Shown one piece after another: positions 19,298 through 34,598 of a DNA stretch of 64,000 nt; the first letter of the stretch is position 1; each line of letters begins with the position of its first letter. This DNA comes from Escherichia phage fKMPT1: the sequence record PP620640; one strand, 5' to 3'. The notes beneath the pieces are model-generated. The model ran no database searches. It was not told the origin of the DNA and saw only the letters and a list, made by a program, of their open reading frames with translations. A program made the translations under genes and the position numbers.

Positions 19298-20473
19298 ATG
19301 GCAGTCGGTGAAATTCAAATTAGTGCCTTGCCACAAGCGGCATTACCTGTTGATTTAAGTGATATCTTCCATCTTAAGCAAGGTGTTGAGGATAAAAGAT
19401 GTACGCTTGAACAGTTGTTAGCACCTCACGCATCTTTGAGGAATAATCCTCATGGTGTAACCAAATCGCAAGTGGGTCTTGATAATGTTATTAACTCTCT
19501 TCAATTAGTTGCAGCTAATAACTTGTCAGACATTGTGAATGTTGCTGAGGCAAGAGCGAATCTGCAAATTATGTCTTCAGATGAAGTGAACAGTTTAATT
19601 AAGAGACATATCGACGACAAAAGTAACCCACACAATACAACTAAAGCACAGGTTGGGTTAAGTAATGTTCAGAACTGGACAACATCAAACCTGTACAATG
19701 AAGATGCTGATAAATATGCTACTGCGAGAGCAGTGAATAATTTATACAAAGCTATCCAAGCATCATATCCAGTAGGGACTATTCATCTATCTGTTAACTC
19801 TGCTAACCCATCTACTTACTTGCTTTGTGGTGGTACTTGGGAGTTAGTCTCTAAAGGTAAGGCACTAGTTGGTTATGATACAGATTCTAGACCTGTTGGT
19901 TCAACGTTTGGTTCTCAGACTGTAGCATTAACAAATAATAATTTACCAGCACACACCCACTCTATCTATTTAACAGGTGGTGGTCATACACACTCTGCAA
20001 GTGTATCTATCTCTAGTTTCGACTATGGTTCAAAAAGTACATCGACTTTTGACTACGGTACGAAGGCAACTAACAGTGCTGGTGCTCACACCCACACATT
20101 TAGTGGAACGACAAGTAATGCTGGTAACCACAACCATAGAGTACCTATGAGGGGTAACGACAGAAGTGGGTCAAATGCTATTACTGCATCTGCTGATGCT
20201 GGTGTTGGGTATGCTGTGTATACTGATTTGGCTGGTGCTCATACTCATAGCTTCTCAGGTACAACTGCATCATCTGGTGCTCACAGTCATACTGTCGCAA
20301 TTGGTGCTCACAGTCACACTGTTAATATTGGTTCACACAGTCATACAGGGTCTGTTACTGTTTCTAGCTCCGAGCATACACACTCAGGAACATCTGGTTC
20401 TGTTGGTGGTGGGCAGGCTTTCAGTGTTGAGCAGCCATCTTTTGTAGTATATGTGTGGCAGAGAACAGCTTAA
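19298..20473 (+). CDS. Tail fiber protein with phage-tail-fibre repeats and His-x-His repeat tip
   Basis: 391 aa; two copies of NPH(G/N)xTK(S/A)QVGLxNV motif (tail fibre repeat); C-terminal array of HTHS/HSHT/HNHR motifs (AHTHSFSGTTASSGAHSHTVAIGAHSHTVNIGSHSHTG) as in T4 gp37 metal-binding tip; ends ...VWQRTA. Confidence 0.75.
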   Translation: MAVGEIQISALPQAALPVDLSDIFHLKQGVEDKRCTLEQLLAPHASLRNNPHGVTKSQVGLDNVINSLQLVAANNLSDIVNVAEARANLQIMSSDEVNSLIKRHIDDKSNPHNTTKAQVGLSNVQNWTTSNLYNEDADKYATARAVNNLYKAIQASYPVGTIHLSVNSANPSTYLLCGGTWELVSKGKALVGYDTDSRPVGSTFGSQTVALTNNNLPAHTHSIYLTGGGHTHSASVSISSFDYGSKSTSTFDYGTKATNSAGAHTHTFSGTTSNAGNHNHRVPMRGNDRSGSNAITASADAGVGYAVYTDLAGAHTHSFSGTTASSGAHSHTVAIGAHSHTVNIGSHSHTGSVTVSSSEHTHSGTSGSVGGGQAFSVEQPSFVVYVWQRTA

Positions 20474-20482
20474 TTTCTTTAC

Positions 20483-20503
20483 AGGGGCTTTGTAGCCCCT
20501 TTT
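20483..20503 (+). terminator. Rho-independent terminator
   Basis: aggggct-ttgt-agcccct hairpin followed by TTTT. Confidence 0.6.
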
Positions 20504-20519
20504 AAGAGGAAAATTTATA

Positions 20520-22898
20520 ATGGCAGATTACAAATTGAGTCAATTAAACTCAATCGACACAATTCGTTCAGAAGACCTATTGCACATCAGAGTTAAGAAA
20601 AGACCTGAAATGTTGGGTGACGAAGACCGTAGAATGACCTATCAAGACTTCTTAGCTTCCTTCAAGCTAGAAAGGTTTGTTCAGATTGCTGGGAGTACTA
20701 TGGTTGGGGATTTAGGTATTGTCAAGTTACTTTACGGTGGTAAGGCAGTATTTGACCCAACAGGCTCTTCTGAGATTACTATTGGGGATATTTTAAAGAC
20801 TTTTAAAATTAACTCAAATGGGCTTAAACTCACTATTGCAGATGCCACAAGGTCGGCAACTGTTTATCATACTTTGAATAAACCAAGCCCTAATGAACTT
20901 GGTATGAGAACTAATGAAGAGAATGATGCAAGATATGCAAGGCTTGCTGTTACAAACACATTCTCTGGGACTCAGAACATTCAAGGTGATGCTAACTTAC
21001 TTCGCCTTAGAAACCGAAATGCAAACAATGCACAATACATTGAAGGTGTGAACCTAGATGGTTCAGCTAGATGGTGGGTTGGTATTGGTAGCAATGGTTC
21101 TGACGAAGTAAAACTGTACAATAACAAATACAACTCAGTCTTGACTGTTGCAAGTAATATCTCTGTTAATAAGTCTTTAGCAATCACTGGACAAGTCCAA
21201 CCTTCAGATTTCTCTAACTTAGATGCTAGATACTTTACTCAGACAGTTGCTAATCAGAGATTTGCACAGTTAGCTGCTAATAATAATTTTACTGGAACAA
21301 ACACGTTCAGCAGAAACCTCACCATCATCAGTGATAGTGCTGCTTTAAGGTTGAAAAATGCAACAGCTAGCTCACTATTCATTCAGGGTGTTGGCCCCCA
21401 GAACACTAACAGGTGGTATGTAGGAAACGGGGATAACACAGCCTCTGTGCTGCTACACAACTATGTACACGGTTCAAATATCAGGCTTGATAATGGTTAT
21501 ATCTCAGTCAACCAGAACTTCAGAATCACTGGACAAGTTCAACCTTCAGATTGGGCTAACATTGACTCTAGATATATTCCAGCAGCAACATTAAGTACGA
21601 TTGCAAGAACTAATGCACAAAATACTTTTAATGGTGTACAGAAAGTTGTTGCGGATAATGAAGCCCTGATTTTTAAAAACTCTACTCAGAACAGACCATT
21701 GTATATCCGTGGTGTGGACACTGCTAATGTTTCAAGATGGTGGGTAGGTGTTGGTGGTGCTGATACGAATGATGTTACCCTAAATAACAGTTATTCTGGA
21801 ACCCAATTGGTTCTCGGAAATACAACATCATACATTAACAAAACATTGGCTATTGCTGGACAAGTCCAACCTTCAGATTTCTCTAACTTAGATGCCAGAT
21901 ATTATACACAATCTGTTGCGAACTCTAGGTACATGCTTGCTGTCTCTTCTGGCACTGGTACAGAGGTAGGTGATAGTGATGGAATTGCTTGGAATGCTAA
22001 AACTGGTCTGTATAATGTTACAGGGAAATCTGGTGGTTCAACACAACTGGTCTACCATATGTATCAGGGTAGCAGTTCTACACCAGCAGCTCAGTTAAAA
22101 TTTAACTACAACAATGGCGGTTTTTGGTATAGGTCAGCAAGAGATGATTATGGTTTTGAGAGTGCTTGGTCTAAAATCTATACAGACAAAGATAAACCAA
22201 CCCCTTCAGATATCGGTGCATACACTAAAACTGAAACTGACCAGAAGATTGCACAGGCTATCAGTGACTCTACAGACCTGAATAAAATCTACCCAGTAGG
22301 TATCGTGACATGGTTTAATAGTAATGTTAACCCTAATACAGCACTTCCTGGTCTAACTTGGACGTACCTGAATAATGGTGTTGGCAGAACTATTAGAATT
22401 GCAGCAGCAAATGGTTCAGATGTTGCTACAACTGGTGGTTCAGACTCTGTAACGTTATCTGTTGGTAACTTACCTTCACACACACATAGTTTCTCTGCCA
22501 CCACTTCATCATTTGACTATGGTACTAAATCTACTAGCAACACAGGTGCGCATACCCACAGTGTCAGTGGGACAGCCGCATCGTCAGGTAATCACTACCA
22601 CACTTATATTGGCGATGACTCTCTTTATAACAGAAAATTGGCGACCAGAGATAGCCTGGTCAACTGGGATTGTGGTGATGGAACGGGGAACGGAGGAAAC
22701 TACCGCACTAGCACGTCCGGCGCACATACCCATAGTGTCAGTGGGACAGCAGCTTCTTCTGGTGCACACGCACATACTGTTGGTATTGGTGCTCACAGCC
22801 ACACAGTTAGTGGTAACACAGGTGGTACTGGTTCTGGTTCAGCATTTAGTGTTACTAACCAGTTCTACAAGTTAATGGCTTGGGTAAGAACTGCTTAA
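20520..22898 (+). CDS. Long tail fiber protein with three internal repeats and His-x-His repeat tip
   Basis: 792 aa; three ~110-aa repeats each containing ITGQVQPSD(F/W)(S/A)N(L/I)D(A/S)RY; C-terminal HTHS/HYHT/HAHT/HSHT array; C-terminus ...AWVRTA paralogous to upstream fiber. Confidence 0.75.
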   Translation: MADYKLSQLNSIDTIRSEDLLHIRVKKRPEMLGDEDRRMTYQDFLASFKLERFVQIAGSTMVGDLGIVKLLYGGKAVFDPTGSSEITIGDILKTFKINSNGLKLTIADATRSATVYHTLNKPSPNELGMRTNEENDARYARLAVTNTFSGTQNIQGDANLLRLRNRNANNAQYIEGVNLDGSARWWVGIGSNGSDEVKLYNNKYNSVLTVASNISVNKSLAITGQVQPSDFSNLDARYFTQTVANQRFAQLAANNNFTGTNTFSRNLTIISDSAALRLKNATASSLFIQGVGPQNTNRWYVGNGDNTASVLLHNYVHGSNIRLDNGYISVNQNFRITGQVQPSDWANIDSRYIPAATLSTIARTNAQNTFNGVQKVVADNEALIFKNSTQNRPLYIRGVDTANVSRWWVGVGGADTNDVTLNNSYSGTQLVLGNTTSYINKTLAIAGQVQPSDFSNLDARYYTQSVANSRYMLAVSSGTGTEVGDSDGIAWNAKTGLYNVTGKSGGSTQLVYHMYQGSSSTPAAQLKFNYNNGGFWYRSARDDYGFESAWSKIYTDKDKPTPSDIGAYTKTETDQKIAQAISDSTDLNKIYPVGIVTWFNSNVNPNTALPGLTWTYLNNGVGRTIRIAAANGSDVATTGGSDSVTLSVGNLPSHTHSFSATTSSFDYGTKSTSNTGAHTHSVSGTAASSGNHYHTYIGDDSLYNRKLATRDSLVNWDCGDGTGNGGNYRTSTSGAHTHSVSGTAASSGAHAHTVGIGAHSHTVSGNTGGTGSGSAFSVTNQFYKLMAWVRTA

Positions 22899-22977: not shown

Positions 22978-23175
22978 ATGCCTACAATCCTAGCAATTCT
23001 TCTAAAAAATCTAGGTAGCTTCTTCTGGAAACTCGTTTTATCCCTTCTAAGTGAATACATGATTGAGAAAGTGTTCTTTAGGCTTGCAAGATATCTTGCG
23101 AGTAAGACAGATACACCTATTGATGATGAGTTCGTAGATAACTTAGAAAAAGCTTTTAAGGGGGAGAATAAATGA
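22978..23175 (+). CDS. Small membrane protein (holin/antiholin-class candidate)
   Basis: 65 aa, N-terminal hydrophobic helix ILAILLKNLGSFFWKLVLSLL; RBS GATGAGG. Confidence 0.3.
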   Translation: MPTILAILLKNLGSFFWKLVLSLLSEYMIEKVFFRLARYLASKTDTPIDDEFVDNLEKAFKGENK

Positions 23176-23543
23176 AGTGGCTAGAGGAAGCTTTTAAAAA
23201 TAATATTGGTGCAATTGTAGTTGGTATTTTTAGTGTTATCGGAATGTATACCACGATGCAGGTTTCAAGTGGTAAACAAGAGGTGTCTGTCAAAACAAAG
23301 TTACAACAGTTGGATAATTACACAAGTAGTAACTATTCAGCTATTCGTGATTTACAGTCTGACATTAGGCTTATCCAGTTAGGGATGGAGAACCAGAAAG
23401 TCCAGTTAGAGAATGTTAAGGGTGAGAACGCAAAACTTACTAAAACCCTTGATAAATTCTCTGACAGCGTGAACAATCTGGCTCAATCAGTATCAGCCCT
23501 CCAAGCTATTACTGAAAAGAACACAAAGAATACTGAAAAGTAA
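23172..23543 (+). CDS. Membrane-anchored protein, T4 t-like holin candidate
   Basis: 123 aa; single N-terminal TM (IGAIVVGIFSVIGMYTTM) followed by helical soluble domain; located directly after tail fiber genes as holin t is in T4. Confidence 0.35.
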   Translation: MKWLEEAFKNNIGAIVVGIFSVIGMYTTMQVSSGKQEVSVKTKLQQLDNYTSSNYSAIRDLQSDIRLIQLGMENQKVQLENVKGENAKLTKTLDKFSDSVNNLAQSVSALQAITEKNTKNTEK

Positions 23544-23548
23544 AGTTT

Positions 23549-23576
23549 AAGGCTCCTTTTTACGGGAGCCTTTTTG
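23549..23576. terminator. Bidirectional intrinsic terminator between convergent genes
   Basis: ggctcc-loop-ggagcc hairpin flanked by A-run upstream and TTTTTGTTTT downstream. Confidence 0.65.
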
Positions 23577-23579
23577 TTT

Positions 23580-24479
23580 TTACTTACCTACTGACAGAGG
23601 TGCTTCAATCTTACCTGCATGTTGGTAGTTATTAATCCCACCAATAAAGTCACTTGCAGTAAGATGTTTCAGGTCACTTAAAGTATTAAGTGGTAGACCA
23701 ATCTCAAAAGTTGGTGCATGGAACTCTTCATTGTTCATCAGTTCATAAACCTGCTTCATATGGTTCTGATAAATTTGAGTATCTCCAAAGACACCTATCA
23801 AGTACCGTGGAGTGTATCCGGTCATCTTGCAAAGAACTTCCAGAATAAAACCATAAGAGGCAATATTAAATGGAAGTCCTAAGAAGGTGTCTACTGAACG
23901 CTGATACCATTGTAAGTCAACTTCACCCTCGTTAGTGATATAAATCTGAAACAGTACATGACAAGGTGCTAAAGCCATTGAGTTCGCTGCAATATCTGCT
24001 GCATTCCAAGCATTAACAAGCATGTAACGGTCTGTGATATCACCCTTCATCTTCGTTACTAAGGTCTCTAGCTGGTCTACAACACAACCGTTATGACCTT
24101 CGAAGTTTCTCCACTGAACCCCATAGATTCTCCCACCTGCATCCTCTAACCAATCTTGTTCAGAAGAATAATTAGAGCTTAACCAGCGTTTAAAATCATC
24201 TGACCAGATAGTCCAGCGTTCTCCGTCATTTTCACCCCAAGTACGGTAACGAAGTTCACCAAGCTTATTCTCACCATTCAGGAACCATAAAGCTTCCCCA
24301 ATAACTTGCCGTGTAAACACCTGTTTAGATGTTAATAGCGGGAAACCAGTTCGCATATCAAAACGAAACTGAGGTGGAGCAAATGCAGAGATAACATCTC
24401 CAGTTCGTGTAGTACGCAGTTCACCAACGGATAAAACATGGTTCAGGATATTTTTGTAACTTGTATCTGCTTGTGACAT
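23580..24479 (-). CDS. thyA: Thymidylate synthase (ThyA/Td family)
   Basis: 299 aa; near-collinear with E. coli ThyA: RTGDV, FPLLTSK, WFLNG, YGVQWR, MALAPCH catalytic Cys, YQRSVDTFLGLPFNIASY, GDTQIYQNH. Confidence 0.85.
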   Translation of the reverse strand: MSQADTSYKNILNHVLSVGELRTTRTGDVISAFAPPQFRFDMRTGFPLLTSKQVFTRQVIGEALWFLNGENKLGELRYRTWGENDGERWTIWSDDFKRWLSSNYSSEQDWLEDAGGRIYGVQWRNFEGHNGCVVDQLETLVTKMKGDITDRYMLVNAWNAADIAANSMALAPCHVLFQIYITNEGEVDLQWYQRSVDTFLGLPFNIASYGFILEVLCKMTGYTPRYLIGVFGDTQIYQNHMKQVYELMNNEEFHAPTFEIGLPLNTLSDLKHLTASDFIGGINNYQHAGKIEAPLSVGK

Positions 24480-24480
24480 A

Positions 24481-25026
24481 TCAAAAGTGTCCTTTTACTT
24501 GTGGAACATAAATTTCAAAGGTTGCTTTACCATCCTCTGATGGTTTTGACTGTACCTTTGTAAATACACGGTTATCATACAGCTTCTCGAAGAAGTTTTC
24601 AAAAGGTAAATGCACAGTGGTCTCTTCAGTAACTTTATGGAAAACTGTATGGAAAACTACACCAGCATACGGTAAAGCATTGACAAGGACACCTGCACCA
24701 CCAATTACAAAGACATCTTCATCAATAGAGCTATCAAGATAGTTCAAGAATGCTCCAAAGGATTCTTTGCTGGCCTTAGCATACATTACATCATCTTTGC
24801 CAAAATCTATGCCTAAATATGGTACAGAATTTGTTAAGATTAGGTTTGCACGTTCTGGTAAAGGTTTACTCCCCAGAGTCTTGAAAGTTTCATTACCCAT
24901 CACTACTAAGTTGTTTTTAGTGAGTCTCTTAAACTCTTGCATGTCCTGTTTATGTCGAGGCCACGGCATACCAGTTGGAGTACCAAACTCACCATTTTCA
25001 CCACTTGCAAAGATTAATTTAATCAT
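24481..25026 (-). CDS. frd: Dihydrofolate reductase
   Basis: 181 aa; N-terminal MIKLIFA...GMPWPRHKQDMQEFKRLT and VVMGNETFKTL resemble phage/bacterial DHFR; adjacent to thyA. Confidence 0.7.
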   Translation of the reverse strand: MIKLIFASGENGEFGTPTGMPWPRHKQDMQEFKRLTKNNLVVMGNETFKTLGSKPLPERANLILTNSVPYLGIDFGKDDVMYAKASKESFGAFLNYLDSSIDEDVFVIGGAGVLVNALPYAGVVFHTVFHKVTEETTVHLPFENFFEKLYDNRVFTKVQSKPSEDGKATFEIYVPQVKGHF

Positions 25027-25283
25027 TTTGTAAATCCTTTCTTAATGAACCAGTTGACAACATTCTTCACAGCTTTATTGCTATGATAGATTAAGTGTGG
25101 TGTAGGTTGGTATGAACCATAGGCCCAGAAAGCAATAATTTCACTACACCCTGTACACCTTGTACTCTCTTCAGCAATATGACCGTTGACTATTTCACTC
25201 ACCTCACCTTGTAAGTCTGTACATCCACAATGTGGGCAACGGATAGGTGCTCCGTCAGACTCATAGCAGTGTTCAATTTTCAT
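25023..25283 (-). CDS. Small zinc-ribbon protein
   Basis: 86 aa with CPHCGC ... CTGC cysteine pairs. Confidence 0.4.
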   Translation of the reverse strand: MKIEHCYESDGAPIRCPHCGCTDLQGEVSEIVNGHIAEESTRCTGCSEIIAFWAYGSYQPTPHLIYHSNKAVKNVVNWFIKKGFTK

Positions 25284-25799
25284 TTATTTAACCTCAAAAA
25301 CTGGTTCAAGAACCAATATAAAGTCTACACAGTCATCTTCTTCATCCAGAATACCATCAAAGTTCTTAGGAACGAAGTCGAAGAGACTCATCACAAAGCA
25401 GTCAGAAGTAACCCTGATAGTTCCTCCGATGTTCTCTACAGTTAACACTGTACGACTTTCTTTTACCTCTCGCAAAAGATTACTCACAAAGTCATCTAAG
25501 AAGTACTTCATCAGTGATTTAAAGCCTTTAGGGTAATCTGTACCAGAGTATGTTTCAATCTGAGGTACAAGCTTAACATTTATACTAGTCTTTGTTAAGA
25601 ATGTGTTAGAGAACATACTATCAGGTAACTTACAAACAATCTTTCCAGTACCTTCATGTTCAATCTCAACAAAACCAGCTTCATCGCCACATGTAACTAT
25701 TTTAAAAGATGCTTCATTCTCACACTGTGAAGCCATAAACTTTTTAAGCATAATTTTAAGGAAATCTGCATGAGCATCTTGTAAGTAGACATCAATCAT
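25284..25799 (-). CDS. Hypothetical protein
   Basis: 171-aa ORF in tightly packed minus-strand operon. Confidence 0.4.
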   Translation of the reverse strand: MIDVYLQDAHADFLKIMLKKFMASQCENEASFKIVTCGDEAGFVEIEHEGTGKIVCKLPDSMFSNTFLTKTSINVKLVPQIETYSGTDYPKGFKSLMKYFLDDFVSNLLREVKESRTVLTVENIGGTIRVTSDCFVMSLFDFVPKNFDGILDEEDDCVDFILVLEPVFEVK

Positions 25800-25812
25800 A
25801 GTTAATCACCTA

Positions 25813-26172
25813 TTATGGGAACAGACACTTAATGTCATCATTTTTGAAAACGAAGCTTGTGTAATTGTGACCATCAACATCCAGCCAAACAGCCTGAACA
25901 TCTACACCATCAAGATTGTGGTAAATCTCTTTGATGAAGTGGTCTTTTACAATCTGGCTACTAGTTGTTTCCAGCTTAATGTTTGAGATTGCTGAACCTA
26001 CAGCCATATAACCCATGACACGTTTCTTCTCAGTATGCTTAATCTTACCATCTTTATAAGCCATAATGAGATTGGAAAGAATCTTCACACCATAATACTT
26101 TTCAAGGTGAGTAGGTACACCATAAAAGCCTAATGCGAAGTTTTCAGAGTGGATAATGTTTTCACGTTTCAT
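25813..26172 (-). CDS. Hypothetical protein
   Basis: 119-aa ORF. Confidence 0.4.
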   Translation of the reverse strand: MKRENIIHSENFALGFYGVPTHLEKYYGVKILSNLIMAYKDGKIKHTEKKRVMGYMAVGSAISNIKLETTSSQIVKDHFIKEIYHNLDGVDVQAVWLDVDGHNYTSFVFKNDDIKCLFP

Positions 26173-26173
26173 A

Positions 26174-26503
26174 TTAATCTGCCAGCCTTAAATTAAAATT
26201 AACACCAAATTTTTCGCATACTTCCAACATATACTCAAGCGAGACATTACCAGTGAGGTGGATTATGTTGGATACGCGAGCCTGAGAGATACCACAAATT
26301 TTAGCAACTTGCTCTTGAGAAAGACCTCTGGATTTAATCTCTCTCTTAAAACGATGTGCAACGAAGTCTCTCATTTCGTCTACATCCATTGGACAAATAT
26401 AACTCTCCATTTCAGCCTCTCTGTCAACCTCCCAATCATCTTGTGGAGCATAAGGGTCAAAAGTCTCATTCATCTTTCTTCTTCCGTTTGCGTGAAGTGT
26501 CAA
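26174..26503 (-). CDS. Helix-turn-helix (XRE-like) DNA-binding protein
   Basis: 109 aa; C-terminal region LSQEQVAKICGISQARVSNIIH typical HTH. Confidence 0.55.
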   Translation of the reverse strand: MTLHANGRRKMNETFDPYAPQDDWEVDREAEMESYICPMDVDEMRDFVAHRFKREIKSRGLSQEQVAKICGISQARVSNIIHLTGNVSLEYMLEVCEKFGVNFNLRLAD

Positions 26504-26678
26504 TCAATGAATCTATGTTTGTAGCCCTAACCTTTTCACGTTCATCGTTAAGATAATCATCAAGAGCCTTTTCAATCTGTGAATCATCTTGACAGATAAC
26601 TGTAAAGACTGTAAAGCCGTCTGTATCGTCAATTATCTTACCATAACCGCTTCTGGGGTGTAACTTTTTAAGAGCCAT
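26466..26678 (-). CDS. Hypothetical small protein
   Basis: 70-aa ORF with basic C-terminus. Confidence 0.35.
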   Translation of the reverse strand: MALKKLHPRSGYGKIIDDTDGFTVFTVICQDDSQIEKALDDYLNDEREKVRATNIDSLIDTSRKRKKKDE

Positions 26679-26679
26679 A

Positions 26680-27063
26680 TCAAATACCTGTGCAGCTTCT
26701 GTTTTCTAAGAAATACTCAACACCATACATAGCTTTTTGCATCAAATCTTCTTTAAACTGGATGCGATGGTTGAGCATAGCCTGTACATCAATATCATCA
26801 TGGTGCTTTTCTTTAATATTTGCAGATTGCAGGAAATACTCTCCAAGAACACGATACTGGTAGTCAGTTACCTTATCAGTCATCTCTGTCAAAGACTCTT
26901 CAGAGATTGGTTTAAGTAGCTCACCTTTAGATAGCGCAACACCTTTTACAATCTGGCAAGTGTCTTCTGGAACACCTGATAAGTCCACATTTGGAAGTTC
27001 TGTTGCATTGACTGGTAAATTCATTGCCATAACCATTGCAGCAGCTAATAAAATCTTTTTCAT
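26680..27063 (-). CDS. Secreted/periplasmic small protein
   Basis: 127 aa; N-terminal signal peptide MKKILLAAAMVMAMNLPVNA. Confidence 0.5.
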   Translation of the reverse strand: MKKILLAAAMVMAMNLPVNATELPNVDLSGVPEDTCQIVKGVALSKGELLKPISEESLTEMTDKVTDYQYRVLGEYFLQSANIKEKHHDDIDVQAMLNHRIQFKEDLMQKAMYGVEYFLENRSCTGI

Positions 27064-27169
27064 AATGACCTCAAAGTTATATTAAATTTTGTATTACATT
27101 GAGTATAAAAATAAGCTATAACACCTGACTTGTCAACAGATTTTATAGCTTATTTGGCAGATTTTTTAT

Positions 27170-27430
27170 AAGGCTACTGCCATCCTTCCATACCACACCA
27201 AACCACACCTTACCTCACACCACCACACCCAACCGAGCCTGACCTTATTAAAAGACCCTCTTAAAGACCTTTTAAAAAGGTAAGTCTCATTTTAATGTAG
27301 TTGAGACTAACTACCCATACTTTACCGGACCTTACTGGACCATACCTAACACCACCGAACCAAACCATACACCACCGAACCGTACCATACCAGACATCAC
27401 TTAAAAACCCTCTTAGAAAGACTCTTAAGT
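27170..27430. repeat. Duplicated G-depleted CA-rich module with conserved TTAAAA(G)ACCCTCTTA box
   Basis: Two ~100-130-bp units (27170-27270 and 27300-27430): plus strand runs of CCA/CAC/ACC almost devoid of G (e.g. ccataccacaccaaaccacaccttacctcacaccaccacaccc; accaccgaacc twice), each ending in ttaaaagaccctcttaaagacc / ttaaaaaccctcttagaaagac. Confidence 0.6.
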
Positions 27431-27648
27431 GATGCTGGTGAGTACCCGTTGGTTTATGCTGCTCAGTATACTCACCAAATTTTCTATGTCAACAACTTTT
27501 ATAAAAAAGTTCTGATAGCTATATGCGTCACGAAACAAAAGATTGTAAACAAGACACCCATTGCAAAAGATGTGTCCAAAAGCTTACTTGCAACGTATGA
27601 CAATACAAAGACAACCAGTATAAACAAAATGACTGTACTGAACATAGT

Positions 27649-28749
27649 TTACTCATAATCCCTAATAACTAGCCCAACAGGAAACTGTAAAGACCCCTTA
27701 CGAGTCATCTTCTGGAACTGAACCGTTAAAGGTTTCCCGATAAACTCTTCAGGATGCTCAGCAAGATACTGTTTCTTCTCATGAGTAGTCTTCCATGAGA
27801 CATCTACAAAGACGTTAGGAAGCGTCTCTACAACGAACTTGCCATGACCACGTTTATCGGTCTTTACACCAGTTACTTTAAACTCTTCAGTGTGCATCTT
27901 CTTGTGCTTAATCAAGAAGTATGAACGGTGACAACACTCATAGAAGGAGTCTTCAGAAATTGAACGGTACATTGCACCTTCAAACTTAGCTTCAACCCAC
28001 TTATCATGGGCTTCATCAAACTCTTCCCAAGAGTTAACACGACGAGATTTAACAGGGACAACTTTACAGCCATCTCTAAAGTCATTCAATGGTGAAGTCT
28101 CAATAATATCTCTACGCTCAGGCCACGTCTTAGTACTGTCACAGATATCATACCAGTAGAACTGGAGTAGATGTCGGTCTGGATTGTCAGCATTCTTAAT
28201 CATAGACACAATGTCTTCTAAGTCCCAACCATGAGCATAAATCTCGCCATCAAAGTCTTTAACTTGCGGATGTAATTTAAGCAACAAAAGTAAATCTGGG
28301 ATTAGTTCTGCTGGAACGTTGTAAACAGTATTCTCACGAGAATAAGCCGTGAAGCTAACTGAATCAGCATCTCTTGAAATTCTACAACGAACACCATCAA
28401 GTTTTGGTTGAGCATCAGCAGGGAATATCAAATACTTTGCATGACTAACCTTTGCAGCATCATGCGCAAGCTGTACACCTACCTTCTCAGTATTCTGTGC
28501 AGACTCTTTTGTGTAAGCATAACCTTTGCGGTCAACCTGCTTTTTATACTTAGCAGCAACTTCAAAGAGAGCTTGCTGTTCAGCGTTACGCTCATTCTTT
28601 TTACCGATGTTTTTAGGTTCTGCTGTATACTCTTCAAACATCATCTTGCCATTCTCTTTACCGTAGGTTGTAATAACTTTGTCGCCTACAGCAACACATG
28701 ACCAGACGTTGAAGGAGCCATCTTTATTTTGTTTGTATAGAATTGTCAT
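27649..28749 (-). CDS. ATP-dependent DNA ligase
   Basis: 366 aa; adenylation motif I KLDGVRC (KxDG); size as T7-type ligases. Confidence 0.8.
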   Translation of the reverse strand: MTILYKQNKDGSFNVWSCVAVGDKVITTYGKENGKMMFEEYTAEPKNIGKKNERNAEQQALFEVAAKYKKQVDRKGYAYTKESAQNTEKVGVQLAHDAAKVSHAKYLIFPADAQPKLDGVRCRISRDADSVSFTAYSRENTVYNVPAELIPDLLLLLKLHPQVKDFDGEIYAHGWDLEDIVSMIKNADNPDRHLLQFYWYDICDSTKTWPERRDIIETSPLNDFRDGCKVVPVKSRRVNSWEEFDEAHDKWVEAKFEGAMYRSISEDSFYECCHRSYFLIKHKKMHTEEFKVTGVKTDKRGHGKFVVETLPNVFVDVSWKTTHEKKQYLAEHPEEFIGKPLTVQFQKMTRKGSLQFPVGLVIRDYE

Positions 28750-28952
28750 TTTCTCTTACCACCAATTTCTACGTCAATAACTTGAATATCACCAGCATCA
28801 TCAAACTTGTGAATGATGCTTTTCACAGTGTAAGTCCAACCCTCGATGCGAACCAATTCACCTTCTCGTGGAACTATTGGGTTACGTTGAGCTACCGTTG
28901 TAGTGGAGTGAACAACATCATAACAATAGATATAGTTTACTAGGACTTCCAT
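28746..28952 (-). CDS. Hypothetical small protein
   Basis: 68-aa ORF coupled to ligase start. Confidence 0.35.
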   Translation of the reverse strand: MEVLVNYIYCYDVVHSTTTVAQRNPIVPREGELVRIEGWTYTVKSIIHKFDDAGDIQVIDVEIGGKRK

Positions 28953-28961
28953 GCCTTTTCC

Positions 28962-29195
28962 TTAAAATGATAAGTCAATATTGATACGTTCACCCTTAAG
29001 GACTCCTGTACGGTCCCTTGCAATCTTACCGTCAACAATAAGGATATGCGCAGACCTTAAAGATTCACTATTAAAACCTTTTACGAACTTACTAGGCATA
29101 ACTACAATAAGCATCTCTTGAATCAACTCTGGAGTGTAGCAGTTGTCGTGAAGTTGCTGAATAACGTCTGCAAGTGTCATTTTTGATGTCTCCAA
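28962..29195 (-). CDS. Small protein, paralog 1 of a two-member family
   Basis: 77 aa; alignable over full length with 29383..29601 product (shared ...DGKIA(R/K)D(R/K)TG.LKGER(I/V)NI...). Confidence 0.45.
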   Translation of the reverse strand: METSKMTLADVIQQLHDNCYTPELIQEMLIVVMPSKFVKGFNSESLRSAHILIVDGKIARDRTGVLKGERINIDLSF

Positions 29196-29386
29196 TACTC
29201 AATGTCAATAAGTTCTTGTGCAATGCTTTTCAGATTACCTTTCAAGAAAACCTTCTCAGAATCTGAAAGAGATGAATTGTCAATTAACCTGTTCATTCTC
29301 TCAAACAACTTCTGCTTACGATTCTTGATAGTTTCCTTTGAAGCACCTTTCATCATCGCTGCATGGGTTCTTCCACGGTGGCTCAT
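29177..29386 (-). CDS. Small basic protein
   Basis: 69 aa, Lys/Arg-rich. Confidence 0.35.
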   Translation of the reverse strand: MSHRGRTHAAMMKGASKETIKNRKQKLFERMNRLIDNSSLSDSEKVFLKGNLKSIAQELIDIEYWRHQK

Positions 29387-29601
29387 AGTAAAGTCTCAAT
29401 GTTTACACGCTCACCTTTTAAGTAGCCTGTCTTGTCTTTTGCGATTTTGCCTCCAGCAATAAAGATATCAACTCTACGTAGAACTTCAGGGTTTACCTTC
29501 AAATTCCTACAGCTACTGCAAAGAACAATAAACATCCCTTCAATCTCTTTTTGAGAGTAACCTGCACATTGCAACTGAACTTCAATCTCTGAAAGCGTCA
29601 T
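29383..29601 (-). CDS. Small protein, paralog 2 of a two-member family
   Basis: 72 aa; paralogous to 28962..29195 product. Confidence 0.45.
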   Translation of the reverse strand: MTLSEIEVQLQCAGYSQKEIEGMFIVLCSSCRNLKVNPEVLRRVDIFIAGGKIAKDKTGYLKGERVNIETLL

Positions 29602-29652
29602 GTGACCTCCTATATAAGATATTGTATATGGTACTCTTCCATGAGCACCTTG

Positions 29653-30156
29653 TCAAGATAGTTTTGCAAACTCTCCGTGGAGTTTTATAGCAGCTTCACA
29701 GTAAGCTTTATGGGCTTCTTCAGGTGTATCAAATAGACCAAGTGATGACCTTTTACCTCTGCATGTTATAGTCGCCCTCCACTTATTGCAGTCTTTAAAG
29801 TAATGAACACCCTTGTAACCTGATTTGTTAGTCGTCTGCTTTACCCTGTTTTGAGCGTTTCCATATTTATCGGTCTCCCTAAGATTAGAAATGTGATTAT
29901 TACTCCTGTTGCCATCAATGTGGTCTATCATCTTAGTAGGTTTGTAACCATGCTCAAACCACCAAACAAGGTGATGCACTTTTATTACAACATCTTTGAA
30001 TTTAAGCACTTTGTAACCATAAGCATCACTTCCTCCGGCAACCTGACCAGCTTTAGCTTGTCTATTCCTATCATACCTGTTGTAGAAGACCCCTTTATCG
30101 GGGTCGTAAATAAAGTTGTCCTTGTAATCTTGAAGTGTTAGTGAACGGCGTACCAT
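29653..30156 (-). CDS. HNH homing endonuclease with AP2-type DNA-binding domain
   Basis: 167 aa; HNH_3-like motif MIDHIDGNRSNNHISNLRETDKYGNAQNR and AP2-like SGYKGVHYFKDCNKWRATI...LGLFDTPEEAHKAY; immediately downstream of intron-containing polymerase gene. Confidence 0.75.
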   Translation of the reverse strand: MVRRSLTLQDYKDNFIYDPDKGVFYNRYDRNRQAKAGQVAGGSDAYGYKVLKFKDVVIKVHHLVWWFEHGYKPTKMIDHIDGNRSNNHISNLRETDKYGNAQNRVKQTTNKSGYKGVHYFKDCNKWRATITCRGKRSSLGLFDTPEEAHKAYCEAAIKLHGEFAKLS

Positions 30157-30689
30157 GTTTTACCTACCTTACCAGTACCCGTGACAAGTGTCTTACTCTT
30201 TAATCCAAGATTTTTTGATGCTTGACCATACATTCTATCAATAATCTCCTTAACATCTGGTACAGCTTTTGTTGGAACCTCTAAAGAAACTTCGTCGTGG
30301 TAACTACAGACCCATCTAGCACCAATAGCTGGTTTCCTACCATTTAGAACTGTAAGTTTTCGCTCTGTTAACTCTCTATTAGCCAAGTTAATCCCCTCAT
30401 TCTGTACCTGCGCCTCACTACCCATGAGTGTGAAATTCAATAACTTATGTGGAGATTTACACCATAACCACGCTCCAGCGACTTTGATATAACCACCTTT
30501 GGCAATTGCAGAAGTTTTTCCAAAAACCTCTTCAAGTGCTTTCTTAGTTGCTTTGAAGTCTTCCTCTAACCTATCAAGCAGCTTTTTAATCTTAGGTAGA
30601 CGTACAAAGTAAGTTTGTTTAGTCAATGCACCTTCTTCCGTAGATGATGCCTTGATAGTTTTTGCAAACTTCTCGTCTCCAGCACCGAA
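30138..30689 (-). CDS. DNA polymerase, family A (T7-like), exon 2 (5' boundary approximate)
   Basis: Contains FGAGDEKFA (second half of motif B, cf. T7 YGAGDEK) and motif C YHDEV; no in-frame ATG or RBS at its 5' end, stop codon 4 codons upstream. Confidence 0.65.
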   Translation of the reverse strand, partial: FGAGDEKFAKTIKASSTEEGALTKQTYFVRLPKIKKLLDRLEEDFKATKKALEEVFGKTSAIAKGGYIKVAGAWLWCKSPHKLLNFTLMGSEAQVQNEGINLANRELTERKLTVLNGRKPAIGARWVCSYHDEVSLEVPTKAVPDVKEIIDRMYGQASKNLGLKSKTLVTGTGKVGKTWYAVH

Positions 30690-30965
30690 CAATACATCTG
30701 GTCAATACACTCGCAAGGTGTACCAGTTCTCTTATGAACTTCTCCGCATTTCTACGGAGTGTCGGACTATATCACGTAGCAGGATGCTACCGTTGCACTT
30801 GGGAATGGTCATTAGCTTACCACCCTACTCTACTCAGTTCATACGTTAAGTATGCTTTTCGATAGTCTCTGAACGTTCCTCTCAAGAGGCTTCGCTGCTG
30901 ATTACCGTATCTTCTCAGACTTAGGCTTCCAGCAATTCACAACGTTTTACATGCGCCACTGACGC
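30690..30965 (-). mobile_element. Group I self-splicing intron (ORF-less) in DNA polymerase gene; boundaries approximate
   Basis: On minus strand, in order: P-like gaattgctggaagcc (~30924-30938), Q-like aatcagcagcg (~30893-30903), R-like gttcagagactat (~30862-30874), S-like gatatagtccgac (~30761-30773) giving P7 GACTAT/ATAGTC; P9-like hairpin ctccgtagaaatgcggag; possible P1 pairing exon tttaT with intron Gtaaa; interrupts motif B of polymerase. Confidence 0.75.
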
Positions 30966-33104
30966 ATAAATGCCATTTTTGGCTTTCTTACGACCTTTTG
31001 TAATCTCGTGGAGAAGTTCCTCATCCTGTGTATACCTACAACGAACAATATCTTCTTCCTTGTTCAGACCAAAGTAAATACTGTTCAGTGTATGTGCATC
31101 AGTACCTGTGTATACTTCATAGAGGTCATTCTCAGCATCATAACGAAGGTACTTGTCAGTTTCTGGATTGAGGTACTTATCAAGATGCTTGCAATAGTAT
31201 CTTCCATCCTCTTGCTTGGTAAATTCTACTGACTCTTTACCTTGTGTTACCGCTTTAGTGAACTCTTCATCACCCATAAAGTTACAAAGAAGAACTAGCT
31301 GTGCTGAGTTTTGGTCTACAGAGATGATATCTGTCCCCTCTTCACAAGTCCACACCTCCCTCATAGGTGCTCCATAGACAGCAGCACCAGACGGTACGTT
31401 TACAATACCATATTGTGTCATACGTCCAGTTGAAGTACCAAATACCATTGCACCAGCACTAAGGCGACCATCAGGACGAATCTGGTTCAACCAACCTTTT
31501 TCATCATCCTTTGAGTTCTCAATAGTTCTGCGTCGGTGCATCAAAGTATAGTACTTAGCAATCTTCTGTCCAAGCTCACCTTCAATCGTATCATAAGATG
31601 ATTCAGTAAGTTTTGGTGAAGTACGGATTAAGCAAGGTTCAAGCAAATCTGTGTATTTCTTCACAGACCAGTTATGTTCAATGTACTGGACACCTTCATG
31701 TTCAACATAACTCAAACCACACCTTTCAACCATCTCATCCCACTTAGGATGCTTTGTAATCATCTTTTTGTTGTCTTTGAAACGACAAACTTTGACAGGA
31801 CGACCATCTGAGTCTTTCTTGTAGTTCCAGTCATCTGGAATCCAACCAACTGATTTCAAATAGTCTTTCACAACTGCTACCTGAGTCATACGAGAAACTT
31901 CGAACTCAATTGGTGTATATGGTGCATCAATCAAACCTGTGTAGCGACTTGACTCAAGCTCAAAGTGGTTAACAACATGGCTGTTATAGTACTTCACAGT
32001 TTTAACTGTTTTTACTGGCTTCCAATCTTTGCACTTCTTACCAATCTTTGCATTCAACTCATTGCAAATTGCACGAGCATCCTTCATTGCTACAAAACCT
32101 TCCTTGTACTCTTCACCAGTTACAGAGTTGGTTGGTGTATAGCAATTCCGCTTTTCAATGTTAAAAATCTTTGTAGTTGGCTTACCAAATGGCTTGATTT
32201 CATATGTCTGCATCTCACCGTTACGTACCTGCTGACGATACTTTGTCTTAGGGTACTTGGTAATTCTCTTCAGTCCATCTGCGTGACCAAATGCTTCAAC
32301 ATACTCATTCCAAGCTTTTGCAAACTCTTCTCCAGTGACTTTAACTTTGGTCTTGATAGTTGGAGGAAGATGTGGTTCAACTTCTGAAGCAAGCTCATTA
32401 GTCAACTTGTCAAGTTCCTTTACATGGAACTCCATAAGCTCTTTATCAGCTTTCCAACCATTGATAGCTTGTTGACTCATCCAGAAAGATGTTTCTTTAG
32501 CTCGCATGTAGGTTTCATAAGTATCTACGCCACACTTCTTCAGCTTGAGATATTCATTATCCAGTGCACGTTTAGTTTTGGCGTTAATACGGATATCTTC
32601 TACAACACGAGTGAAGATTTCTGCATTCCACACACCCCAATGTTCAATCTCTGGTTTACGTACACCGACACGAGCACCCCATGCAGCCAAGCCATGAGCA
32701 CCTTTATAGCCTTTTGGAGTTGGTCTATCCATCCATTGAACACGAGATTGGATAAGAGAATCCTGAAAGAAATTACTCCACGGCTTACACTTTGGATTAT
32801 CAAAGTTCCACAAATCAGGTGCAATGTGATTGAAAACCCACCAGTCATACCCCAGACCATTATGGATGCAAAGTCGTTTTGCCTTTAACGCAAACTCAAC
32901 ACCTTCACGCAAGCCACCCTTAATGTACTTGGTATACTTGTGACCGAGGATAGGCTCATCTGTAAAGACCCATACAGGTGGCTCTTCATCGTCAGATTTA
33001 TAGTCTGCGAAAGCCATTACGTGTACTTTAGTGAACTCAAGGAGTAAACCATCAGTTTCTGTATCGCCAACTAAATGTAAGTTTTTAAAATCTACGTTTT
33101 CCAT
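30966..33104 (-). CDS. DNA polymerase, family A (T7-like), exon 1 (3' boundary approximate)
   Basis: 3'-5' exonuclease Exo I motif VGDTETDGL; motif A-like DQNSAQLVL; ends in RKKAKNGIY (first half of motif B); likely true start at second in-frame ATG (MENVD) preceded by GAGGGAG RBS. Confidence 0.75.
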
Positions 33105-33361
33105 TTTTACTCCCTCTAAAATCATTAACCACATACATTACTGCAAAAAATTATAAAAAGCAAGTTGACAATGTACTTGACAAGGTGTTAATCTTTGCGA
33201 AGTGGGTTTTTACTTAAAAGGTTACTTAACAGTTTAACTATACAGATACTTTAAAACTCTTAAAAGATTATTTAATAGTTTTTAAAAAGCTTTAAAGTAT
33301 AACGTATAGAATACGTTAAGATAAAAGATTAAAACTTAATAGTTACTTAAAAGAGGCTTAC

Positions 33362-33784
33362 ATGCAGAAAATGTTTGTTCACCCAGACATAGCTGACTTT
33401 GTTAGAGCTTTGCAGAAGTTGGAAGAACTTGACATTGCTGCTCAACGGGAATATGCTCACCATCACAGGAGAATGGTTGATATACAACATGAAATAGAGT
33501 TGTCTGAAAACTATGAAGATGACTTAAAATGCTCTGTATTTGAGCATATGAAAGATGTTGCTACAGCGAGACGTAAAGCTAAAGACACAGTTGCTTTACT
33601 AGATTCTCTTAAAAAGAGATTGCAAAGTGGTACAGACCTGTGTAATCTAGCGTCACTGATTAACGATGTTGAAACTTCTTGGGATAGACATTACTATCCA
33701 CGTTCTGAAAAGACACTTGACTTTTCTTCATCCGAAAACTTAAAATGTTCTAGAAAGAAACTTAACCAACTGAGAGAGAAATAA
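33362..33784 (+). CDS. Hypothetical early protein
   Basis: 140-aa ORF, first gene after AT-rich divergent control region. Confidence 0.4.
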   Translation: MQKMFVHPDIADFVRALQKLEELDIAAQREYAHHHRRMVDIQHEIELSENYEDDLKCSVFEHMKDVATARRKAKDTVALLDSLKKRLQSGTDLCNLASLINDVETSWDRHYYPRSEKTLDFSSSENLKCSRKKLNQLREK

Positions 33785-33785
33785 T

Positions 33786-34598
33786 ATGAACACTACTGTA
33801 GACCAGATGCTTAAAGAAAAAGGTGTTGACGAAGCATTCTTAATCAATGCCGTAGAAAGCATGGCTATGATTCTTCGTGGAAACAACTATACAGAACAGT
33901 TTATGCCTGCAAGCTATAACTTACCTAAAGACAAGTCTGATAACGGTGCTTTTGCAGAACAGGTTAATATGATGCTGTGTGACAAAAAACTTGCTTTAGC
34001 ATCTATCGTTGTAGGTGTTGATGCTCTTGCAGAGTTCATTTTTTATGAGATGCAGAAAAATGACTATATTGCCATGACCTCTGAAGAAAAAGACTCGCTA
34101 CTACTCTTAGATAATAATGAGTTAGTTGACCTGTTAATTTCGTCAACGAGTGCTGTTATGGCTGCTCTTGAGAAGCGCATGGAAGAGAAGCTGTCACGAT
34201 ATGAAAAGCTTGATTGGGGTGTAGAAGAGTTAAACCCACGAATCAAAGAGATTATCCAGCAAACTAAAGAGTCTTTAGAAGAGGCTGTGAAAGATGATTC
34301 CGTAGCTGATGTAGAACCACTACAGGTGAAGGTTGCTCTGATGATTCCAGCTATCTCTACAATGATGAATATCGTTGCACTAATCCAACTTTCACAGATG
34401 TTGGGTGTAACCATTGAGTTCGTTGAGGAGATGACTGGTGGTGTCAGCATGCAAGCAATCAATGATGTTTTGGTAAACATTGGCGCTTCAATCATTGAAG
34501 AGAAGCTGCGTATTAACTTTGGCGATGATTTTGTGAAGCAAGTATCAGCTATGGCTGAAAAAGAGTATTCACAGATTAATACCGACCAACTGCACTAA
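33786..34598 (+). CDS. Hypothetical acidic protein
   Basis: 270-aa ORF, coupled to upstream gene, followed by terminator. Confidence 0.4.
   Translation: MNTTVDQMLKEKGVDEAFLINAVESMAMILRGNNYTEQFMPASYNLPKDKSDNGAFAEQVNMMLCDKKLALASIVVGVDALAEFIFYEMQKNDYIAMTSEEKDSLLLLDNNELVDLLISSTSAVMAALEKRMEEKLSRYEKLDWGVEELNPRIKEIIQQTKESLEEAVKDDSVADVEPLQVKVALMIPAISTMMNIVALIQLSQMLGVTIEFVEEMTGGVSMQAINDVLVNIGASIIEEKLRINFGDDFVKQVSAMAEKEYSQINTDQLH

Follow-up and report, generated by a model that had tools for sequence, protein, structure and literature searches.

The side fibers of the genus Felixounavirus have been described in Bas63 (Escherichia phage JohannRWettstein), the subject of a cryo-electron microscopy (cryo-EM) study (Sci Adv 2025, PMC12609058). 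That work placed a 430-Å short fiber (gp26) on wedge protein 2 and a 630-Å long fiber (gp27) on a platform, described both fibers as ending in a tip like that of T4 gp37 – a collar, a needle of His-x-His (HxH) motifs, and a head – and compared the beta-helix repeats in the rod of the long fiber to those of T4 gp34. According to the same paper, the seven HxH motifs of T4 gp37 coordinate Fe ions in T4. In Shigella phage Sf14 (Mooglevirus), mass spectrometry detected the fibers gp52 and gp53 in virions (Commun Biol 2025, PMC11821841). Here we describe two adjacent fiber genes of Escherichia phage fKMPT1 (PP620640) that lie within a 64,000-nucleotide (nt) stretch of its DNA, hereafter ‘the window’, and identify their products from sequence as the side fibers, one short (391 amino acids, aa) and one long (792 aa), of a Felixounavirus, a phage of the Felix O1 type.

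Consistent with this identification, both proteins align over their full lengths with the Bas63 fibers: the short fiber is 74% identical to bas63_0026 (gp26) over 391 aa and the long fiber is 64% identical to bas63_0027 (gp27) over 792 aa. The short fiber also matches the tail fiber family PHROG 2097 (E = 1e-135), and the long fiber matches PHROG 4277 along its entire length (1380 bits). The position of the genes agrees with these matches. One preceding open reading frame (ORF) matches Bas63 wedge protein 1 (9NDY_J, E = 9.5e-159) and a second, located directly upstream of the fibers, matches the Bas63 LTF platform gp25 (9NDY_S, E = 1.9e-57) – a gene order shared with the Bas63 record and with 12 related loci. 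The 3.6-kb fiber region is 100% identical, at equal coordinates, to that of Salmonella phage fBSPA4 (OR711204.1, 87 kb, a poultry isolate), whose record labels both gene products, WOL30873.1 and WOL30874.1, as putative tail fiber proteins. The region is common to ~235 phage records, nearly all of them Felixounavirus phages of Escherichia, Salmonella, and Shigella. Taking all of the evidence below into account, we assign a probability of roughly 0.88 to the following joint reading: the genes encode Felixounavirus short and long side fibers, both fibers have gp37-type tips, and the near-identical DNA stretches of the long fiber gene encode linkers joining cassettes that are swapped by recombination.

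Sequence comparison identifies both tips as homologs of the T4 gp37 receptor-binding tip. We took T4 gp37 residues 785–1026 as the reference region and found, in a search of PDB sequences, that short fiber aa 145–362 match residues 17–227 of the T4 tip entry 2XGF (E = 2.4e-26) and that long fiber aa 648–771 match the same entry (E = 8.6e-13). An earlier reading of the letters alone, made without database searches (the sequence-only reading), had proposed that both genes encode tail fibers with T4 gp37-like tips, on the basis of C-terminal HxH arrays and a shared C-terminus. These observations hold. There are nine HxH motifs in the 391-aa fiber and six in the 792-aa fiber, all within the C-terminal third, and both proteins end in AFSV, nine further residues, and W-x-RTA, with the Q of the pattern originally noted shifted by one residue between them. 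The proposal itself is borne out by the 2XGF matches, by the colinearity of the HxH motifs described next, and by orthology to the fibers seen in Bas63 and Sf14 virions.

In a three-way alignment, the T4 motifs at residues 883/915/929 and 966/980/989/998, which flank the head, pair in order with short fiber motifs 219/264/278 and 315/329/338/347, and long fiber motifs 654/678/692 and 736/750/759 align with six of the seven T4 motifs. The 14/14/9/9 spacing of the short fiber motifs is identical to that of T4, as is the 37-residue interval that contains the head (T4 929–966, short fiber 278–315). The interval between the first and second aligned motifs is 45 residues in the short fiber versus 32 in T4 and holds an additional motif at aa 230; this motif and the one at aa 360 have no T4 counterpart. 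In both fibers, the C-terminal strand lines up with the T4 gp37 C-terminus, and the needle is preceded by a gp10/gp12-type collar, which in the short fiber aligns both with T4 gp37 from residue ~800 and with the gp10 C-terminal domain. Among 58 short fiber homologs, H315, H317, H347, H349, W387, and R389 are invariant and H219, H278, and H280 are nearly so. By homology, we infer that either tip could bind metal.

The heads, short fiber aa 281–314 and long fiber aa 695–735, are the most variable parts of the two proteins among relatives, a pattern that fits receptor contact. In phages whose short fiber is 74–77% identical overall, identity falls to 27–63% in the bins covering aa 271–330, and the short fiber head is presumed to be the receptor-contacting tip. 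The long fiber presents a similar picture: its collar is 90–100% conserved among the Felixounavirus relatives compared (63–73% in the Mooglevirus Sf14) and its C-terminal strand retains 92–99% nt identity among relatives, while the block between them at aa 670–752 is a swapped cassette in every relative compared (35–47% nt identity). Across a wider sample of 120 database homologs of the short fiber, needle-bearing members contain 6–17 HxH motifs, so that needle length, meaning the count of putative metal sites, varies across the family. Some prophage-derived homologs in this wider family have the collar and HxH segment fused to unrelated domains (portal, S49 peptidase); these fusions are probably gene-calling or assembly artefacts.

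We next consider the rod of the long fiber. Pfam gp37_trimer (PF20744) matches it in three stretches, with a score of 265.7 bits against a cutoff of 21.7. The sequence-only reading had described three near-identical ~110-aa repeats in this region. Three units are indeed present, but they share only 38–50% aa identity, and what is close at the DNA level is a 20-aa linker (LAITGQVQPSDFSNLDARY and variants; also given as ITGQVQPSDFSNLDARY). Linkers 1 and 3 agree at 53 of 60 nt and share a 40-nt exact run, its two copies lying at ~21187 and ~21856, 669 nt apart and in frame; linkers 1 and 2 agree at 47 of 60 nt and linkers 2 and 3 at 43 of 60. Codon identity at the shared residues of the units is mildly above the expectation from codon usage (P ~0.01–0.06). 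We also considered gene conversion between linkers within one gene and, because this excess is weak, leave it as a possibility. Long fiber sequence also appears under two unexpected names, in records named Staphylococcus phage SA1 (GU169904.1, 84669–84977, 88% protein identity to repeat unit 1) and Campylobacter phage A126 (MG065668.1, 6–146, 72% protein identity to repeat unit 1); the probable cause is mixing or mislabelling of the assemblies and not a true change of host.

To define how the rod differs among relatives, nt identity between the long fiber gene of fBSPA4, used as the reference, and those of eleven relatives was segmented into two states. Identity alternates between 88–99% in islands and flanks and 35–53% in cassettes, with recurring switch points at aa ~141–149, 216–258, 334–356, 444–466, 558–559, 667–671, and 752–755. 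Three of the high-identity islands coincide with the three near-identical DNA segments of the sequence-only reading, that is, with the linkers, although the bounds of island 1 differ slightly in VpaE1_ev108, CL1, and Andreotti. At a single position, protein identity between cassette alleles drops as low as 19–29%, and the alleles are combined differently from phage to phage: the H12 long fiber resembles that of fBSPA4 in units 1 and 3 and differs in unit 2, LF82P3 resembles it in units 1 and 2 and differs in unit 3, and VSe102 shares unit 2, and not unit 1, with VpaE1_ev108. The mid-fiber domain (aa 466–558) and the distal needle and head (aa 670–752) switch alleles in the same manner as the rod units. 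Across records, unit 1 identity falls into discrete classes, with 47 records at ≥95%, 45 at 80–90%, and 159 at <60%.

This arrangement of high-identity islands flanking divergent cassettes is most likely the product of homologous recombination between co-infecting relatives, with cassettes exchanged at the conserved junctions. Cassette exchange is the usual mode of fiber evolution, and Tetart and colleagues reportedly proposed in 1998 that the ‘His boxes’ of T-even gp37 act as recombination junctions. We additionally looked for exchange between different positions of the rod; a nearest-neighbour analysis returned just three weak cross-position cases (38–45% identity), which we do not regard as evidence for it.

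An alternative is that the islands and divergent cassettes arose without recombination, with the linkers held by purifying selection while the beta-helix units mutate rapidly. Conserved linkers joining point-mutating beta-helix units are the first option listed by the authors of the Bas63 study, who describe the variability of the rod as unexpected and do not consider recombination (PMC12609058). In its favor, every unit of every phage scanned carries the linker as a strongly conserved protein motif, and the similarity of linker DNA exceeds the prediction from codon usage only mildly. The mosaic pattern nevertheless argues against selection as the sole cause. Identity falls from 95–99% to 35–50% nt within a few codons of nearly identical flanks, alleles at one position are about as distant from each other as units at different positions, allele combinations are incongruent between units, and unit 1 identity is distributed in discrete classes. 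We therefore regard an explanation by selection alone as unlikely.

A second alternative, raised by the sequence-only reading, is that the near-identical 40–60-nt stretches promote unequal recombination within the gene, so that 110-aa units are added or lost and fiber length and host range vary. The 40-nt in-frame run shared by linkers 1 and 3 could in principle support rare deletion. Relatives, by contrast, keep three units. We aligned ten Felixounavirus long fibers (780–849 aa) and scanned them for the linker motif; all 10 have three units, a direct alignment shows the same layout for Bas63, and the Bas63 authors report a constant number of repeats across the genus (PMC12609058). When one unit served as a tblastn query, almost every Felixounavirus record among the matches listed was hit in three places, and the two listed exceptions, with two places each, encode full-length long fibers of 783 and 780 aa. 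Neither this search nor the comparison of relatives’ long fibers revealed copy-number variation of the rod units. The length differences that do exist map elsewhere, to an alternative mid-fiber domain (+57 aa, with insertions after aa 481, 488, and 536; found in JN01, H12, and BPS17L1) and to small indels in the head, and linker 2 is just 72–78% identical to the other two linkers. Unequal recombination as a source of standing variation is thus largely refuted, and we consider this alternative very improbable.

Least probable of all is that the HxH arrays are merely compositionally biased Gly/Ser/Thr/His shaft repeats that bind no metal: the Bas63 density did not permit side-chain modelling, but the motifs are colinear with and identically spaced to the seven of T4, several of their histidines are invariant or nearly so among 58 homologs just 33–97% identical to the query, and the nine and six motifs observed far exceed the counts in shuffled sequences (5000 shuffles each; means 1.4 for the short and 0.35 for the long fiber, maxima 7 and 4).

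Several points weigh against the reading that we favor – Felixounavirus side fibers with gp37-type tips and recombination-swapped cassettes. Virion presence is known only for the orthologs, through Sf14 mass spectrometry and Bas63 cryo-EM density. The long fiber collar scores 26.1 bits against Pfam Gp10_C, just under the cutoff of 27. An AlphaFold2 model of the short fiber monomer, built from a 58-sequence alignment, is poor (mean predicted local distance difference test score, pLDDT, 65.7; predicted template modelling score, pTM, 0.28), and a Foldseek search of this monomer against the PDB returned no significant match, with 2XGF absent; the best of the non-significant matches were to T4-type gp10 collars (E = 0.026–0.046), and the Bizionia C24 tip also appeared (E > 1). 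A single chain gives no basis for judging an intertwined trimer. Finally, breakpoints may cluster at the islands in part because the linkers are under strong structural constraint, and not because crossover is favored at these sites.

Table 1. Features of the fiber locus of phage fKMPT1, in window coordinates.
Feature	Position	Strand	Description
Short tail fiber gene	19298..20473	+	391-aa ORF; ortholog of Bas63 gp26 and Sf14 gp52
Two NPHxxTKxQVGLxNV motifs, N-terminal shaft	19445..19669	+	Short fiber aa 50–64 and 110–124; regular-expression match
Short fiber collar, N-terminal part	19730..19951	+	aa ~145–218, ends in LPAHTH; Pfam Gp10_C 68.6 bits, cutoff 27
Short fiber needle, ascending strand	19952..20137	+	HxH at aa 219, 230, 264, 278; aligned with T4 883, 915, 929
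Short fiber head domain	20138..20239	+	aa 281–314, between HxH 278 and 315
Short fiber needle, descending strand	20240..20383	+	HxH at aa 315, 329, 338, 347, 360; aligned with T4 966/980/989/998
Short fiber C-terminal strand, back to collar	20384..20470	+	GGGQAFSVEQPSFVVYVWQRTA; aligns with T4 gp37 C-terminus NIAFNYIVRLA
Hairpin GGGGCT-TTGT-AGCCCC, then TTTT	20484..20503	+	Read directly; in the 46-nt gap between the fiber genes
Long tail fiber gene	20520..22898	+	792-aa ORF; ortholog of Bas63 gp27 and Sf14 gp53
Three rod repeat units	20916..21926	+	Long fiber aa 133–246, 247–360, 361–469; Pfam gp37_trimer PF20744
Conserved island 1, linker 1	21182..21283	+	ITGQVQPSDFSNLDARY...; high-identity segment in AYO145A and Bas63; segment 21181–21240 of the sequence-only reading
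Conserved island 2, linker 2	21524..21585	+	High-identity segment, recurs in 8 relatives; segment 21522–21575 of the sequence-only reading
Conserved island 3, linker 3	21849..21901	+	High-identity segment, 40-nt run shared with linker 1; segment 21849–21905 of the sequence-only reading
Mid-fiber domain	21942..22274	+	aa 475–585; Pfam gp37_C PF12604 92.9 bits; phage Mu fiber S
Long fiber collar, N-terminal part	22281..22478	+	aa 588–653; aligned with short fiber and T4 collars
Long fiber needle and head	22479..22802	+	HxH aa 654, 678, 692 ascending; head aa 695–735; HxH 736, 750, 759 descending
Long fiber C-terminal strand	22803..22895	+	…GSGSAFSVTNQFYKLMAWVRTA; aligned with short fiber and T4 C-termini

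Taken together with the Bas63 structure, the domain maps (Table 1) suggest an architecture for the two fibers. By orthology, each fiber would be a trimer with its N-terminus on the baseplate: wedge protein 2 would hold the short fiber, and the gp9-like platform, whose gene lies immediately 5′ of the fiber genes, would hold the long one. Each tip would comprise a collar, a six-stranded needle, and a small variable head. Within the needle, three chains would together contribute each HxH motif to one octahedral metal site, so that the short fiber could have nine such sites and the long fiber six, and the variable head would contact host lipopolysaccharide. The long fiber would have two further parts, a rod built from three related beta-helix units and a mid-fiber domain resembling the one in Mu fiber S, with the near-identical DNA stretches encoding the conserved linkers that join the rod units. 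Homologous recombination between co-infecting relatives would then swap rod, mid-fiber, and head cassettes while leaving the number of units unchanged.

The long fiber may also contact the host outside of its tip. A study that challenged Salmonella Infantis with Felixounavirus phages reported changes at long fiber residues 497 and 534 (PMC6669636). If the numbering corresponds, these residues lie in the mid-fiber domain and the long fiber may carry a second host-interacting module there – a suggestion that we regard as speculative.

The sequence-only reading had also singled out two copies of NPHxxTKxQVGLxNV in the short fiber, calling them phage-tail-fibre repeats. The copies are real, beginning at aa 50 and 110, and are kept in Bas63 gp26; the name belongs elsewhere, since the Pfam family ‘Phage tail fibre repeat’ (PF03335) matches HxH units instead, at short fiber aa 259–272 and long fiber aa 755–767. 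The long fiber match exceeds the family cutoff of 20 (28.1 bits) and the short fiber match falls under it (14.9 bits).

Phages of this group are used in Salmonella typing and biocontrol, and it is the fibers that determine their host range; a map of the limits of head, needle, mid-fiber, and rod cassettes is useful for host-range engineering. The gp37-like tip architecture is already known for the genus, having been published in 2025, and is covered by existing Pfam families, so that the main finding is nothing new in kind. Our modest addition is the cassette map, which shows that exchangeable cassettes meet at conserved junctions and that the near-identical DNA stretches lie at these junctions. 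Such junctions represent natural splice points for fiber swapping and offer a simple explanation of the rod variability noted in Bas63. A stronger version of this idea, to which we give even odds, is that the three linker islands and two boxes in the needle, FDYGTK and GAHxHTV, are the crossover points of a cassette-exchange system that swaps the rod units, the Mu-S-like domain, and the head independently among co-infecting Felixounaviruses. If true, this system would account for the variability of the rod, which the Bas63 authors had not expected, and would imply that the long fiber shaft, and not the tip alone, is under diversifying selection – for example, through side-on O-antigen binding or evasion of a fiber-sensing defence system.

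Within the locus, the hairpin between the two fiber genes sits just 5′ of the long fiber ribosome-binding site. The equivalent site in phage AYO145A is annotated as a rho-independent terminator, and a consensus terminator scan did not flag the hairpin at 20484–20503. It might lower expression of the long fiber relative to the short fiber. Downstream of the fibers, window positions 22978–23543 contain two small membrane-protein genes (65 and 123 aa) that have no known function according to PHROGs, the second being annotated as a holin in relatives, and a strong terminator-like hairpin follows at 23549–23572. Alternative-frame ORFs of 72–137 aa lie within the HxH-coding regions at 20166–20447 (+), 22462–22875 (+), and 22584–22802 (-); they are Leu/Val-rich read-throughs of repeated His, Thr, Ser, and Gly codons and almost certainly not genes.

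Other features lie beyond the fiber locus. On the minus strand, the fBSPA4 GenBank record has DNA polymerase as two ORFs (30138–30692 and 30921–33125), with an HNH endonuclease ORF (29653–30156, minus) abutting the smaller piece, which looks like a DNA polymerase gene split by insertion of a homing endonuclease. GC skew across window positions 1–64000 is positive from 1 to 24000, negative from ~24000 to 34000, and positive beyond, matching the switch from plus-strand structural genes to a minus-strand td/frd/ligase/polymerase block. We also considered a horizontal origin of the whole fiber locus. The nearest relatives of the backbone are two Salmonella phages at 95.9%, with many E. coli phages at ~94.5%, and the closest matches to the fiber locus are E. 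coli phages; this contrast between backbone and locus is too small to claim transfer.

Compared with known systems, the locus most closely follows that of Bas63. The two phages share a genus, a gene order (wedge 1, LTF platform, short fiber, long fiber, two small membrane proteins), the collar/needle/head tip, and a three-unit rod followed by a mid-fiber domain. They differ in that the short fiber has nine HxH motifs here and seven in Bas63, as in CL1 and Andreotti, with the head-proximal needle segment of Bas63 being of another type. The rod cassettes, mid-fiber domain, and head also represent other alleles (43–52% nt identity), and while Bas63 has an E. coli K-12 host, fBSPA4, which is identical over the fiber region, has a Salmonella host. 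Sf14 resembles the locus in its two-fiber organization, with 74% identity to the short fiber (gp52) and 55% to the long fiber (gp53), and differs in belonging to another Ounavirinae genus, in having four HxH motifs in its long fiber, and in the divergence of all cassettes.

The similarity to T4 gp37 is confined to the tip. There, the order of collar, needle, and head is the same as in 2XGF, the C-terminal strand is similar, and every one of the seven T4 HxH motifs has a counterpart in the short fiber, against six of them in the long fiber. Unlike T4 gp37, the short fiber has two extra HxH motifs and the long fiber one fewer, the head sequences are unrelated, and the Felixounavirus tips are carried on single-protein fibers of 391 and 792 aa, whereas T4 has a four-protein fiber with a 1026-aa distal subunit. 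T4 gp37 requires a chaperone of the gp38 type; unlike in T4, no gene for such a tail-fiber chaperone adjoins the fibers or lies downstream of them. The remaining similarities involve single modules: the rod repeat unit matches T7 gp17 (4A0T, E = 6e-6), the mid-fiber domain matches phage Mu fiber S (8JU3, E = 5e-24), and the collar matches the T4 gp10 C-terminal domain (2FKK, E = 1e-6). Each of these modules is shared with an otherwise unrelated fiber – the usual mosaic make-up of phage fibers.

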